Below are positions 33,704 through 59,081 of a DNA stretch of 64,000 nucleotides, in pieces. The notes under the pieces were generated by a model. The model saw nothing but the letters and a program-made list of their open reading frames with translations, did no database searches and was not told where the DNA came from. Each line of letters starts with the position of its first letter. Positions within the stretch are counted from its first letter, which is position 1. Origin of the DNA: Eledone cirrhosa (lineage: Eukaryota); contig OZ024756.1 of assembly GCA_964016885.1 (NCBI GenBank), forward strand, positions 10,664,001 through 10,728,000, read 5' to 3'. The position numbers and the translations under genes are program-made.

Positions 33704-34155
33704 AAGCAAAAGGGATATTCAATTTGTTGGTAATTCATAATATAGCTAAATAACTTTTAAATTCTGGAATCATATTTCACCATTCCTACAAACTGTTAAT
33801 TATTTTTAAATTAACGTAAATACAAGCTCTTCTTTCTTTCTTTATCCTAATAATTATTTAAATCTACATAGCGTCTAAAAATGACGTTTTTTTTTCAGCC
33901 CTATACCTCAACCTCATTTGCATACTCATCTTAATAATTTGAAATATTTGACTTTTCTTCTCTTTCCTTTCTTTCCTTCACTATCCAGGAAAAATTGAAC
34001 TATTAAGTTGTTCTTTCCTGGTTATGTCAATATTTATAAAACAAACTTTGTATTTTATCTGATGAGAGCATACCAAAGTTTTGATACCCTTGAAATATAT
34101 ATAATAGAATAAATATGGTTTTATAAATATAGTTTCCATTTATTTAAAATCATTG
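33704..34155 (+). mobile_element. Solo PLE 3-family 3' end with flipped tail, in (TA)n
   Basis: Homologous to 57132-57432. 33704-33736 is the reverse complement of the long tail seen at 57494-57526. Confidence 0.82.
34051..34111 (+). ncRNA. Minimal hammerhead ribozyme
   Basis: TATTTTAT-CTGATGA-GAG..CTT-GAAA-TATATA-TA-ATAGAATA. Confidence 0.78.
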
Positions 34156-34601
34156 TATATATGTATATATATAACTAAAACTCTGTGATTGCTTCCTTGT
34201 TTGTCTGTAATTTATTACAGCCAAAAGGGTGCATAATGGAAAAATACTTTGAAAGGAAGTTGCCCCTGAAATGGGAAAACAAATGGAATATAACAAGTTT
34301 CACATAAATCGAAGCAAGGGTTCCCGAGATATGGGTTTTTTTGTGTACCTTCATAAATGGAGAGAAAGAGATAGTGGTTGTGAGAGTAGATTGAAAGAGA
34401 GACATAGAAAGAGGGAGAGGAGACAGAGAAGGTGAATGGAAGAGAGAGAGCTGGTGGTGTTGTTGTGTATATATATATATGTGTGTGAGTGTGTGTGTAT
34501 ATATATGCGTATGTGTGTCTATGACCAGTGTATATAGTTCACAGACACACACATACATATATATATATACACACACACATATAGATATATACACACACAT
34601 A

Positions 34602-35050
34602 CATCATCATCATCATCACCATCATCGTTTAACGTCCATCTTCCACGCTTGCATGGGTTTGGACGGGAATTTTCCCACTCGTATAGGACTATCTGGCAGG
34701 GTTTTCTACGGCTGGATGCCCTTCCCAACACCAACCACGTTTACAGTGTGGACTGGGAGGTTTTTACCGTATTACCTACACAGCCACATTACAGTGTGGA
34801 CTGTGTGTTTTTTTTTGTCGTGACACCTACACGACCTCATTTGTTTCGGCCTGGATGTTGTGGTACAAACATAACTTTACATTGAAAGGGGCGGTGTGGA
34901 TGGGGTGGGGGTGTTGGGACGGGGGGTGTATTTTGTTAGAGGTGCCTACTGACTGTAGTAGGTTTCACTTTGTATTTAGGTAAGGCGGGTCTTCTCTATT
35001 ACTGAGTACCGCCAAAGATCTCGGTCCAGTGACATTGTCTTGGAGATGTG
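34602..35050 (-). mobile_element. Non-autonomous retroposon family C with RTE-type tail
   Basis: Homologous to 59984-60573 and 63523-63969; ends GGACGTTAAACGATG..(GAT)n. No pol III boxes recognised. Confidence 0.75.
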
Positions 35051-35158
35051 TAAGTGGTGTAATATATGTGGTATATATATATACATACACACACACACAC
35101 ACATATATATATATATATATATATATATATATATATATATATATATATATATATTAGT

Positions 35159-35435
35159 AAAAACGAAAAGAAAATGCTGACAAATTTTTCCCAGTGAAAA
35201 ATAGTTTAATTAGGATAAGAATAAATTAGTAATAAGTATTAGTTAGTATTCAGTTTTAGTTTTAAGTATTTGACAGTTGCAGATTTCTTATTCTTTTCAA
35301 AAATAATTTTAAGATAGAGTGGTCGTGATTTTTGCTCACTGAATACTAACTAATACTTATTACTAATTTATACTTATTCCTAATTAAACTATTTTTCCAT
35401 GAGAAAAATTTGTCAGCATTTTCTTTTCCTTTTTT
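35159..35435. repeat. Foldback insert in (TA)n, ~95-bp arms
   Basis: 35159-35254 versus 35338-35435 in reverse complement. Confidence 0.8.
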
Positions 35436-35599
35436 GTGTCACACCTCTAATTTTGTTTAAAGTATATATATATATATATGCAAAAGATTGTTGGGTTACA
35501 ACGAGTAAATATTTTATAACTGATATAAAAGCACTCGACAGTTTCTGGAGTAGGTTTACGATATTAAACAAATGGAAACTATATTTATAAAACCATATT

Positions 35600-35665
35600 T
35601 ATTTCGTTATATATATTTCTGGGATATCATATTAAAAATATGTTATGCCTTCCTCAGACAAAATA
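35600..35665 (-). ncRNA. Minimal hammerhead ribozyme, left arm of PLE 3
   Basis: Reverse complement of 40040-40105. Confidence 0.72.
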
Positions 35666-36904
35666 CAATACATAAGCTGTTTTATAAATAATTAGTGACA
35701 TACCTTTTGAGAATGCAACTTCCTTTTAAAAAAGTTGATTTGGTAGTGAAACTGTTATGATAGTTATATAGAAAGAAAACGAAGATGAGAAGAAGAAGGT
35801 GAAGAGATGTATGTAAATAAAAAGAAGAAGATGAAGAGATGTATGCAAAGAGAAAAGAGATGTATGTAAAGAAAAACAACGGAGCGAGATAGAGAGACAA
35901 GGATAGAGAGAAATACATTGATGGTGAAAAAAAAAAAACACATAGTAGGCTGCATTTTGACAGATGATCATCGTATATGTGAGAGGTTAAGGGAAGGGAT
36001 ACAGTTAGATTAGTGTATAGGAGAAAAAGAAAGAAAGATGATATATTTAAAATATATTAAAAATATATTATGTCTCATCCATTTGAATTATCAATTTTTA
36101 TGAATTAGGCACTATAATGTAAATACCAGTATTCATGAATGAGACACATATCTATAATGTGTAAAAAAATGACCACATGCTCAGTTTAAAAATTCTTAGG
36201 TCTATAAGCAAAATCTGAGACAAAACTTCAAACATAAGTATATATGCATTCTCGTGAAAAATGAGAAAAGAGAAGGTTATCTCAAATTCAAGTTGATAAA
36301 TAAAGACGCACATGTGAACCTAGGTGATACGCTGCACTGATTCTTATATTTCATGAAAAACTTCAATGTGTCAGAAAAGAAAAACTTCAATGCGTTAGAA
36401 GAGATTCCACCCTACATACATTTACATACATATATACATATATATAGACACAAAACATATAAGATATACATTAACATTTAAAACAATCATCGATCAAACA
36501 TAGAGTAGACAACAGATATCAATATTAAAATTAAAAACGCCAAGAATATCTTCGTCACTCCACAGAGTATCTAGGGACGCAAGAGAACATAGTATGCCAC
36601 GCATATCGGTCATAGAATCAGAGTCAAAGCAAGCAGGACCAAAATTGCTCACCAAGCCTTATTTATCAGAAATCATTCAAAACTTATTCTACAAATGCTC
36701 TTATATCTATTATAGAAGTTTATCCAGCTTAAAAATTTATTCAAAAGATTGGGACCAACGCCAATTTTAGGGTAGTTTATTTAATCTCATTAATTATATA
36801 TTCATGCGGAAAGGTTTTTAAAAAAAAAATTAAAGGAATCGAAAGATTTATCGCCAAGTATCACAAATAGTCAAATATCTTAAGTAAATATACTACATTT
36901 TATA

Positions 36905-57124: not shown

Positions 57125-57131
57125 TATATAT

Positions 57132-57526
57132 ATTATTTAAATCTACCTAGCCTCTAAAAGTAACGTTTTTTTCAGCCCTATACCTCAACCTCATTTGCAT
57201 ATTCATCTTAATAATTTGAAATATTTGACTTTTCCTCTCTTTCCCTTCTTTCCTTTTACTATCCAGGTAAAACTTGAACCATTAAGCTCTCCTTCCTAGA
57301 TATGTCAATATTTATAAAACAAACTTTGTATTTTATCTGATGAAAGCGTACCAAAGTTTTGGTTCCCTTGAAATATATATAATAGAATAAATATGGTTTC
57401 ATAAATATAGTTTCCATTTATTAATATCATTGATATTATACTCCAGAAAACCTGTCGAATGCTTCGAATCAGTTATAAATATATATATTTGTTGAATTAC
57501 CAACAAATTAAATATCCCTTTTGCTT
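57132..57526 (+). mobile_element. Solo PLE 3-family 3' end running to the long end
   Basis: Homologous to 33853-34155; ends CCCTTTTGCTT(AT)n. Confidence 0.82.
57329..57389 (+). ncRNA. Minimal hammerhead ribozyme
   Basis: TATTTTAT-CTGATGA-AAG..ACCAAA..TTTGGT..CTT-GAAA-TATATA-TA-ATAGAATA. Confidence 0.8.
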
Positions 57527-57568
57527 ATATATATATATATATATATATATATATATATATATATATAT

Positions 57569-57904
57569 CATCATTTCATTTCATTTCATTTTACATTCGC
57601 TTTTTCCCTGCTTGCAAGGGTGGGACGGGAACTGATTCTGGCTTGATTTCTACAGCTGGATGCCCTTCCTAACACCAACCTCATTTACAGTGAGTGCTGG
57701 GTGCTCTTTTTGCCGTGGCACCTACACGACCACTTTGCAGTGGAATGATAGGGACCCCAGTCCCTATCATCTCATTTCTACAGCTGAGTAAACTGGAGCA
57801 ATGTGAAATAAAGTGTCTTGCTCAAGGAAACAACACATCACCCAGTCTGAGAATTGAACTCACATTGCAAGGCCAATGCTCTAACCACTAAGCCATGTGC
57901 CTCC
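57569..57904 (-). mobile_element. SINE family B
   Basis: Family B sequence with a small internal deletion. Confidence 0.88.
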
Positions 57905-57912
57905 ATATATAT

Positions 57913-58760
57913 AGACAGTTCAAGAGTAAACCAATCTTAAATAGAGAGATAGAAGTAGGATAGGAGAGATTGGTGACTGTGTTAGAAGCCAAAGCTTAAA
58001 AGCGCGTGCTCGATGTGCAATATGCAGTGGAAAGCAGTTGGAAAACTGGGTTCATGCTGAGGTTAGGTGTACAGAGCTGGAGATATTCAGTAGTTAAGCA
58101 AATCAAGACCACAAATTCACATAGAAGACATTAGTCACAGAGTATCAACATTAAGTGCAGTTTAATATAGAAAGGGGACAGTAATGTCAGTTTACAATTG
58201 TTTCACTACTCCATATAATGTTTCTGGATCAATCGATGATAAGAAAGTTATTGATTGCTGCAGAGAAATATAAGTAACATAGTGAGTTGCTAATCTGAGG
58301 ATTCTTTACGGACACATAACCCTCCCATTATATTTTTATTTTTATTTTTATTTTTATTTTATTTTTATTTTTATTTTTATTTTTATTTTTATTTTTATTT
58401 TTATTTTTATTTTTATTTTTATTTTTATTTTTATTTTTATTTTTATTTTTATTTTTATTTTTATTTTTATTTTTATTTTTATTTTTATTTCTGCTTTATA
58501 TATAGTAATAATCTCATTATCCCTCCCTAAGTTCTGAAGATCTGCTCCATAATATTATTCTATGTTACTTATATTTCTCTGTACCAAATCAATAACTTTC
58601 TTACCATTGATTGATCCAGAAACATTATATGGAGTAGTGAAACAATTGTAAACTGACATTACCATCCCCTATCTATATTAAACTGCACTTAATGTTGATA
58701 CTCTGTGACTAATGTCTTCTATGGGAATTTCTGGTCTTGATTTTCTTAACTACTGAATAT
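57913..58760. repeat. Foldback insert with ~200-bp arms and (TTTTTA)n in the spacer
   Basis: 58083-58282 versus 58560-58760 in reverse complement. Unique sequence continues about 170 nt left of the left arm. TA-rich flanks. Confidence 0.8.
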
Positions 58761-58796
58761 ATATATATATATATATATATATACATATATATATAT

Positions 58797-59081
58797 GCAG
58801 AAGTTATATTTAATTTGTTGGGATTCCAACAAGCTTAAAAATTTATAACTGACATAAAGCACTCAACACGAACTGTATTACCCTCAATAACTAATTTTTC
58901 CACTATCCAGTGAACTTTCAACCGTCAAGGTTGTTTTTTCCACGGTTATGTCAATATTTATAAAACAAATCTTGTATTTTATCTGATGAAAGTGCACCAA
59001 GAATGGCTTGGTTCTCCTTGAAATATATATAATAAAATAATTATGGTTTTATAAATATAGTTTCCATTTATTAATATATTG
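58797..59081 (+). mobile_element. Solo PLE 3-family 3' end with flipped tail, in (TA)n
   Basis: 58797-58869 is homologous, inverted, to the tail at 57450-57524; the sense body stops at the short end. Confidence 0.78.
58975..59039 (+). ncRNA. Minimal hammerhead ribozyme
   Basis: TATTTTAT-CTGATGA-AAG..ACCAAG-AATGG-CTTGGT..CTT-GAAA-TATATA-TA-ATAAAATA. Confidence 0.82.

Follow-up and report, generated by a model that had tools for sequence, protein, structure and literature searches.

How retroelements in one stretch of a cephalopod genome come to end at only two points, one on each side of the same insertion, is the question raised by a 64-kb window of Eledone cirrhosa (the whole stretch analysed, 64,000 nt of contig OZ024756.1, positions 10,664,001 to 10,728,000), which is AT-rich animal DNA, rich in microsatellites, in repeats resembling short interspersed elements (SINE-like) and in two satellite arrays. 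The retroelements are Penelope-like elements (PLEs) of families numbered PLE1 to PLE4, and their individual insertions are designated by letters (Table 1). An initial annotation had PLE3 copies ending either about 50 nt (short end) or 130–145 nt (long end) past the predicted cut site of a hammerhead ribozyme, with one end of each kind pointing outward into (TA)n, and had ascribed this to twin priming on one RNA, in which one primer sits at the end of the RNA and the other at a fixed internal AT-rich site. In the analysis reported here, the two end positions were found just upstream of the two copies of a hairpin duplicated in the leaders of related elements.

Short and long ends are paired within insertions

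The distances were recovered on measurement: short ends lay 51 nt (40148), 52 nt (34155) and 50 nt (59081) past the predicted cut, and long ends 130 nt (35478) and 145 nt (57526) past it. The pairing of one short with one long end was found in all 11 two-ended insertions of the window (chance 0.0005 at 50:50), beyond the five originally named, which alone are weak evidence (0.031 at 50:50). Of the six added cases (H, J, K, M, N and P), five came to notice by way of the tail motif; the count is thus partly ascertained, and short/short cases would be hidden. A motif-independent scan of arms beside TA tracts gave no symmetric terminal pair and only internal matches within A and PLE1. Each of the 11 comprises an inverted, 5′-truncated copy and a one-sided tail, as in PLEs endowed with an endonuclease (EN+), and each is a head-to-head inversion with both 3′ ends toward the target, as in twin priming of L1.

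Concerning the arms, the overlap claimed for A was confirmed as 1911 bp with 99.84% identity (3 differences), and the extension of the rule to PLE2 held as well (21148 paired with 24643, and 31611 with 32425), the flipped tail of its second copy being supported by shuffling (p<0.0005). The flipped distal tails attributed to B and D stood for their outer parts, which align clearly over about 33–42 nt and 72 nt, respectively, and not for their inner parts: in B the homology of 33745–33790 was weak (shuffle p 0.04 and 0.18), with about 100 nt at 33746–33846 left without assignment, and in D no homology was supported for 58869–58900 (shuffle p 0.8–0.9). An exact split of the flipped piece at the short site is supported only in PLE2 copy 2 and N. 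In seven of the 11 insertions (B, D, H, J, N and both copies of PLE2), as read by eye, neither arm contains the other; since a single fold-back gives only a contained second arm, two primings on RNA are needed in these seven, in agreement with the earlier proposal that two target ends act as primers. Inversion is common in the window, not universal: it is visible in 12 of about 19 insertions, including PLE1, the other end of which is off-window. Its description as the normal integration route was overstated.

In the leaders of relatives, a duplicated hairpin lies just downstream of both end positions

Relatives of the Hydra type were studied as 77 loci (the best 77 of 302 confirmed stretches), which formed 60 clusters. 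Their leader, between the hammerhead and the ATG, carries two copies of a bulged hairpin, GCUC-Y…R-UN-GAGC-ACU (in DNA, GCTC-Y…R-TN-GAGC-ACT). The motif was matched 124 times in sense and 8 times in antisense, against a shuffle mean of 7, and was present in 49 of the 60 clusters. Hammerhead and both hairpins were contiguous in 22 clusters, with copy 1 at 42–67 nt and copy 2 at 101–134 nt after GAAA and a spacing of 55–74 nt between the copies. Three pairs above the 2-nt bulge, which were outside the search pattern, covaried: they were formed in 84/89, 66/89 and 55/89 distinct copies, versus 67, 37 and 35 in shuffles. In a 77-row alignment of the hairpin, with four doubtful motif matches and near-duplicates excluded, 89.9% of the alignment cells were paired, with 74 double changes, which was equalled in none of 500 shuffles (a test that relatedness can inflate), and slid controls gave 24–56%. 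Both hairpins are also visible before the ATG in the published consensus of Hydra-1_Ajap, and a model derived from the relative loci alone recognized such a hairpin in four tails (those of J, M, A and K) as well as at 59523–59559 (E 2.5e-6 to 0.03). PLE2 obeyed the end rule, but gave no match to this hairpin.

The positions of the ends relative to the hairpins were estimated from the points where terminal copies depart from the leader. They do so 2–8 nt before hairpin 2 in 10 families (one of them through a flipped tail, at locus L021) and 2–13 nt before hairpin 1 in three, that is, no more than 13 nt from a hairpin in 13 of 18 departures (p 5e-7). The 18 were retained from 24 rows: three from L077 and one from L032 were dropped as matches to TA tracts, one from L004 as a 21-nt row with its break in a T run, and one from L021 as a self-palindrome. 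The 11-nt distance in L063 was measured to a degenerate hairpin judged by eye. Junctions with (TA)n fell 41–66 or 101–144 nt after GAAA, with 0/15 in between. The relative loci come from short-read assemblies, in which collapsed repeats can mix copies, yet the branch points mark real junction sequences. Some units deserve separate mention: at L005 (973–3390), L071, L077 and L032, (TA)n stands directly 5′ of a sense hairpin, and some full-length units appear to begin at the start site; these could be assembly joins or insertions into the element's own leader.

In the window, the short ends lie 6–9 nt before hairpin 1 (8 comparisons). The long end of full-length relatives lies 2–8 nt before the second hairpin, in a leader that continues into the open reading frame (ORF), and that of PLE2 falls inside the ORF start. 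Judged from these sequences, the long end is probably internal and not the RNA end, against what had been assumed for one of the primers. The other primer had been assigned to an internal AT-rich site. That site is indeed fixed and shows a TA microhomology of 2–4 nt at seven window short ends; TA is conserved about 5–6 nt upstream of the hairpin (−6/−5), and TA runs just upstream of hairpins are longer (3.7 vs 2.2 nt). However, the short site is not picked by the best complementarity to (TA)n, as perfect (TA) runs of 9–10 nt nearby are not used as ends. A small hairpin with the short end in its loop, seen by eye, was unsupported (z near 0).

Reads from other samples were also considered: three restriction-site-associated DNA (RAD) libraries of one study with the same species label, plus one contig set, were aligned to 35440–38237 (4 of 12 listed runs). 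Among the rows listed, the top tail-side loose end was exactly 35557 with (TA)n beyond it, in 4754, 5664 and 7282 reads of the three samples; reads passing two bases into the tail numbered 10,655, 10,634 and 9,470. The ratio was thus 0.45–0.77, or 0.68–1.05 if the neighbouring ends 35567 and 35570 were included. Four of the eight opposite-strand joints listed near the 3′ end begin in the tail or at its boundary, and two tandem joints, represented by few reads, restart at 35557 from 35611 and 35587 without a (TA)n primer. The reads show a fixed short site in heavy use; they do not show pairing. Joints at 35529 may be an alignment break at an indel rather than a true arm end. In read depth, the hammerhead-bearing end (35534–35721) exceeded the body about 100-fold, which implies that most copies are tiny stubs of the pseudo-long terminal repeat (pLTR).

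Two proposed start sites on one RNA and the competing explanations

The explanation that we favour, and regard as somewhat probable, is that two primers are used at two hairpin-set sites on one RNA complex. The endonuclease (EN) would cut both strands of the (TA)n tract, and the template would run, in order, through pLTR, hammerhead, hairpin 1, hairpin 2 and ORF. Each hairpin would be bound by a protein of the element, fixing a start 2–13 nt upstream, where the conserved UA could serve as a 2–4 nt grip for the 3′ end of (TA)n. One target strand would begin at hairpin 2, yielding the long end and a copy that holds the tail and hairpin 1, and the other would begin at hairpin 1, yielding the short end; the two cDNAs would end at variable points and join head-to-head. 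Overlapping arms would call for one of three things: re-copying of undegraded RNA as the long cDNA passes the short site, use of another pLTR carried by a tandem transcript, or an additional RNA. PLEs are not known to have RNase H, and a Pfam search of six window ORFs returned no RNase H domain, though little else either (a single RVT_1 match below cutoff, in one ORF). We infer the use of the same RNA molecule by both primers from the 11/11 discordant pairs, since independent particles would give at most half discordant and the observed count points to one complex using both hairpins. A further elaboration, which must be considered doubtful, is that the hairpin pair acts as a protein-docking and template-boundary signal, such that a dimeric RT-EN (RT, reverse transcriptase) on one RNA extends both cut (TA)n strands, inversion and one-sided tail being programmed. 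Such a role would recall that of the boundary element of telomerase RNA.

Several observations weigh against two hairpin-set starts. Five of the 18 leader departures are not near a hairpin, and the stability of single 81-nt folds around the short ends is unremarkable (z −1.3 to +0.2). No hairpin 2 can be seen in the window, and the long-end position of the window families is therefore extrapolated from relatives. The pairing count comes from a single 64-kb window and was partly ascertained through the motif, and the reads are RAD libraries of one study, in which the long-end stretch is masked as repeat. About seven insertions are one-armed or have no partner end in sight (C, 25541–25686, 31242–31370, 59107, 59497, the stub at 59461 and PLE4). 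Arms overlap at 9 of the 11 junctions, by 4 to 1911 nt, whereas twin priming of L1 leaves mostly small deletions (66%) and some short duplications (17%) (10.1101/2024.08.27.596794). In the Poseidon element of Anolis, PAc, the starts are said to lack homology with the DNA that is cut (Frangieh et al. 2024, PMC11167929), while the 2–4 nt of TA is usual in the window. Finally, the short arm is nested in the long arm in 4 of the 11 insertions (A, K, M and P), and the centres of M and P are palindromic, as expected of fold-back, although such symmetric centres are equally what two cDNAs would leave if both ran off the 5′ end of one RNA near the hammerhead, a picture suggested by L021.

In the fold-back alternative, a single cDNA that began at the long site turns back on itself or changes over to its own strand as template, and the EN trims the second arm at the TA adjoining hairpin 1, which would serve as a cut signal in single-stranded DNA. 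Self-priming and EN-mediated resolution are published guesses, the tail has been reported as required for the EN to cleave Penelope plasmids, (TA)n has short palindromes on its flanks at 25508 and 63267, and the nested insertions, with the hairpin centres of M and P, are accommodated equally well. Fold-back alone cannot, however, make the seven non-nested insertions, for instance PLE2 copy 1 with its 3.4-kb short arm and 105-nt long arm, and the RT of PAc starts at both sites in vitro; we consider it unlikely. Slightly less probable still is that two separate RNA-protein particles, one per target strand, use the hairpin-set starts, their docking imposing the asymmetry. The 1.9-kb overlap would then need no re-copying, arms 99.84% alike would fit transcripts of one source locus, and one-armed long insertions do exist (C, 25541 and 59461). 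On the other hand, at least half of the pairs would be expected to be long/long or short/short, and 0/11 were. In addition, four arm junctions (PLE2 copy 2, N, D and J) are no more than about 23 nt away from the short site, as if the cDNA had met the other primer; short truncations are, however, frequent in any case.

The exact version of the initial annotation, with one primer at the true RNA 3′ end as the long end and the other pairing with a complementary AT-rich site, predicts the same geometry, and the TA microhomology and the longer TA runs upstream of hairpins agree with it. It is nevertheless improbable in view of the long ends located before hairpin 2 in the continuing leader of 10 families, the PLE2 long end inside the ORF start, the better (TA)n matches left unused and the few tandem joints that restart at 35557 with no (TA)n primer. 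That the flipped tails inserted independently, or lie next to the bodies by chance in hot spots of (TA)n, would fit the lone 12-nt stub at 59461, and a target-site duplication around the whole unit is unreadable within (TA)n. Yet no (TA)n separates tail from body in B, D, N, J and PLE2, tail and body are always of the same family, and opposite-strand joints from tail to body recur in the reads of other samples and in L021, which makes this explanation very improbable.

With respect to known systems, the geometry fits twin priming, but it is not of the L1 type by two defining features. L1 shares the priming from two target ends, the head-to-head joining of cDNAs and a distal piece flipped relative to the body; it primes at poly(A) at the RNA end and at a variable internal site of spurious complementarity, while the insertions of the window show no poly(A) and two sites that are fixed and apparently internal, with better matches unused. 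A close biochemical parallel is PAc, whose protein cuts AT-rich DNA on both strands and extends them in vitro; two fixed starts, both internal, delimit the tail, with the RT start at a stem-loop and a predicted dimer; the later integration steps were left unexplained (Frangieh et al. 2024). PAc belongs to another clade, and the text examined contains no duplicated hairpin, pairing rule or twin-priming model. Inverted copies with a one-sided tail have been described for EN+ PLEs, together with the Hydra clade (Craig et al. 2021, PMC8557442), and with self-priming as the proposal (Arkhipova et al. 2013, PMC3846280); these papers explain the structures by EN resolution or self-priming and do not invoke two primers. 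The published tails measure 30–40 nt and those of the window 52–95 nt (one about 170 nt), and the window differs also by its frequent tail-only flipped arms and non-nested geometry.

Families, coordinates and meaning of the hairpin pair

The window ORFs encode RT followed by a GIY-YIG EN within one ORF and can be aligned along full-length relatives. The linker CxCX5C was read in translations of A (PLE3), PLE1 and PLE4, and (TA)n is the target of all three families. PLE1 carries DKT (changed from DKG), a region missing from the truncated A; over 832 nt, A and PLE1 share 67% identity. The EN of A, as read by eye, lacks CCHH, and its conserved E and N are surrounded by CxxC and CxH. The RWK motif is present in relatives; the Hydra-type copies of the window are truncated downstream of the motif position. 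By these sequence features PLE3 and PLE1 (and PLE4) are of the Hydra-clade type, the clade that includes Hydra-1_Obim and Hydra-1_Ajap and is characterized by DKT, CxCX5C, a C-terminal EN with CxxC and CxH, the hammerhead and the (TA)n target (Craig et al. 2021), although the window families differ from Hydra-1_Obim by eye. PLE2 is Neptune-like, with a linker CX2-5CxxC before the EN (by eye, ORF 21671–24631); its closest protein relative bears an Octopus vulgaris label (68% identity), and no clade is named for its homologues. The N-terminal part of the PLE2 ORF (24074–24538) contains an asparagine-rich stretch that recalls the N-rich inserts of rotifer Penelopes. Among metagenome and viral contigs, no stretch (0) matched an exact PLE3 pattern.

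Hammerhead cores were found by pattern search at 34059, 40048, 35657 (minus strand), 57337 and 58983, with stem I and a palindromic stem III recognized by pattern and eye, so that the pLTR of the window elements has a hammerhead with a predicted cleavage site, of the minimal kind described by Cervera and de la Pena 2014 (PMC4209133). An Rfam scan of the window returned no hammerhead and no other meaningful family, and an Rfam scan of five loci returned 0 matches.

Table 1. Arms, ends and ribozyme or hairpin features of the PLE insertions in the window
Feature	Position	Strand	Description
A, long arm	35478–38237	−	5′-truncated Hydra-type PLE, 2.76 kb: RT C-half, CxCX5C linker, GIY-YIG EN, pLTR, tail; long end into (TA)n
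A, short arm	38238–40148	+	Inverted 1911-bp copy, stops at short site
A, minimal hammerhead core	35616–35657	−	Second copy 40048–40089 (+)
A, tail, bulged hairpin 1	35530–35551	−	7 nt past short site; model E 0.015
B, flipped distal tail, long end	33704–33745	−	~33–42 nt aligned clearly
B, body, short end	33847–34155	+	Hammerhead 34059–34095
Copy C	57124–57526	+	pLTR, hammerhead 57337–57373, hairpin 57440–57463, long end; partner arm not observed; SINE-like repeat directly adjoins the left end
D, flipped tail, long end	58797–58868	−	72 nt aligned clearly
D, body, short end	58901–59081	+	Hammerhead 58983–59023
Lone long-end stub	59461–59472	−	12 nt, between two (TA)n tracts
PLE2 copy 1, body, short end 21148	21148–24538	−	Neptune-like linker, RT, EN; hammerhead 21369–21396; 3.4-kb short arm
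PLE2 copy 1, inverted long arm	24539–24643	+	105 nt: ~53-nt overlap and 52-nt tail that reads as ORF start
PLE2 copy 2, pLTR, short end	31611–32360	−	Later SINE-like insert 31657–31836
PLE2 copy 2, flipped tail	32362–32425	+	Starts ≤4 nt from short site; shuffle p<0.0005
J	63281–63506		Short arm with hammerhead (−); long arm with hairpin 63437–63460 (+), E 2.5e-6
K	41188–41350		Left short end, right long end; hairpin 41276–41305
M	42484–42675		Left long end (hairpin 42529–42555), right short end; palindromic centre
N	25734–25855		Left short end; long arm starts ~6 nt before short site; degenerate hairpin at 25783
H	57914–58756		Arms of 201 bp; right end short; on the left a ~170-nt tail that carries a long-loop hairpin (58077); hammerhead with long stem, from 58535
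P	30465–30664		Hammerhead arms; left short end, right long end with degenerate hairpin
PLE1, Hydra clade	1–4327		DKT, CxCX5C; body on minus; inverted arm 3117–4327 with hairpin 4233–4260 and long end; other end off-window

Other features stand beside these insertions. P (30465) ends in an AT-rich microsatellite rather than in clean (TA)n. At 25541–25686, 31242–31370 and 29089–29130 there are small pieces of the Hydra type that have one arm, a variant hairpin and a long end leading into (TA)n, and long-end tails of further Hydra-type families lie among SINE-like inserts at 59107–59220 and 59497–59660. PLE4 (32436–33500, minus strand) is a decayed Hydra-type element with a short end at a (TA)n shared with PLE2 copy 2 and a hammerhead core that looks mutated. 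A head-to-head fold-back at 35155–35461, between (TA)n tracts, has one arm 28 nt longer than the other, lacks hammerhead and hairpin and was left out of the 11. Palindromes of 7–10 nt centred on (TA)n accompany insertions at 25500–25542, 63257–63290 and 40148–40301, which suggests snap-back on the self-complementary tract, and the right flank of A holds one inverted and one direct copy of its left flank. The satellite arrays occupy 5341–18995 and about 43500–55850, with units of about 52 bp and 47 bp, the second having a local inversion near 51914–52140.

The short/long rule by itself is ordinary and, like the one-sided tail, mostly published; the hairpin pair is apparently the undescribed part, and the one worth following. 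It has no mention in the searched text of Craig et al. 2021, and no paper was found that describes it or applies twin priming to PLEs, in a literature search whose coverage leaves largely outside subscription papers and Repbase reports. The formation of inverted pLTRs and tails in PLEs is named as an open question in that same paper (PMC8557442). The hairpin provides a marker for finding tiny Hydra-derived insertions. In these elements, a short, duplicated and covarying RNA element predicts both end positions across dozens of families, which makes the mechanism directly testable in the closest retroelement relatives of telomerase.

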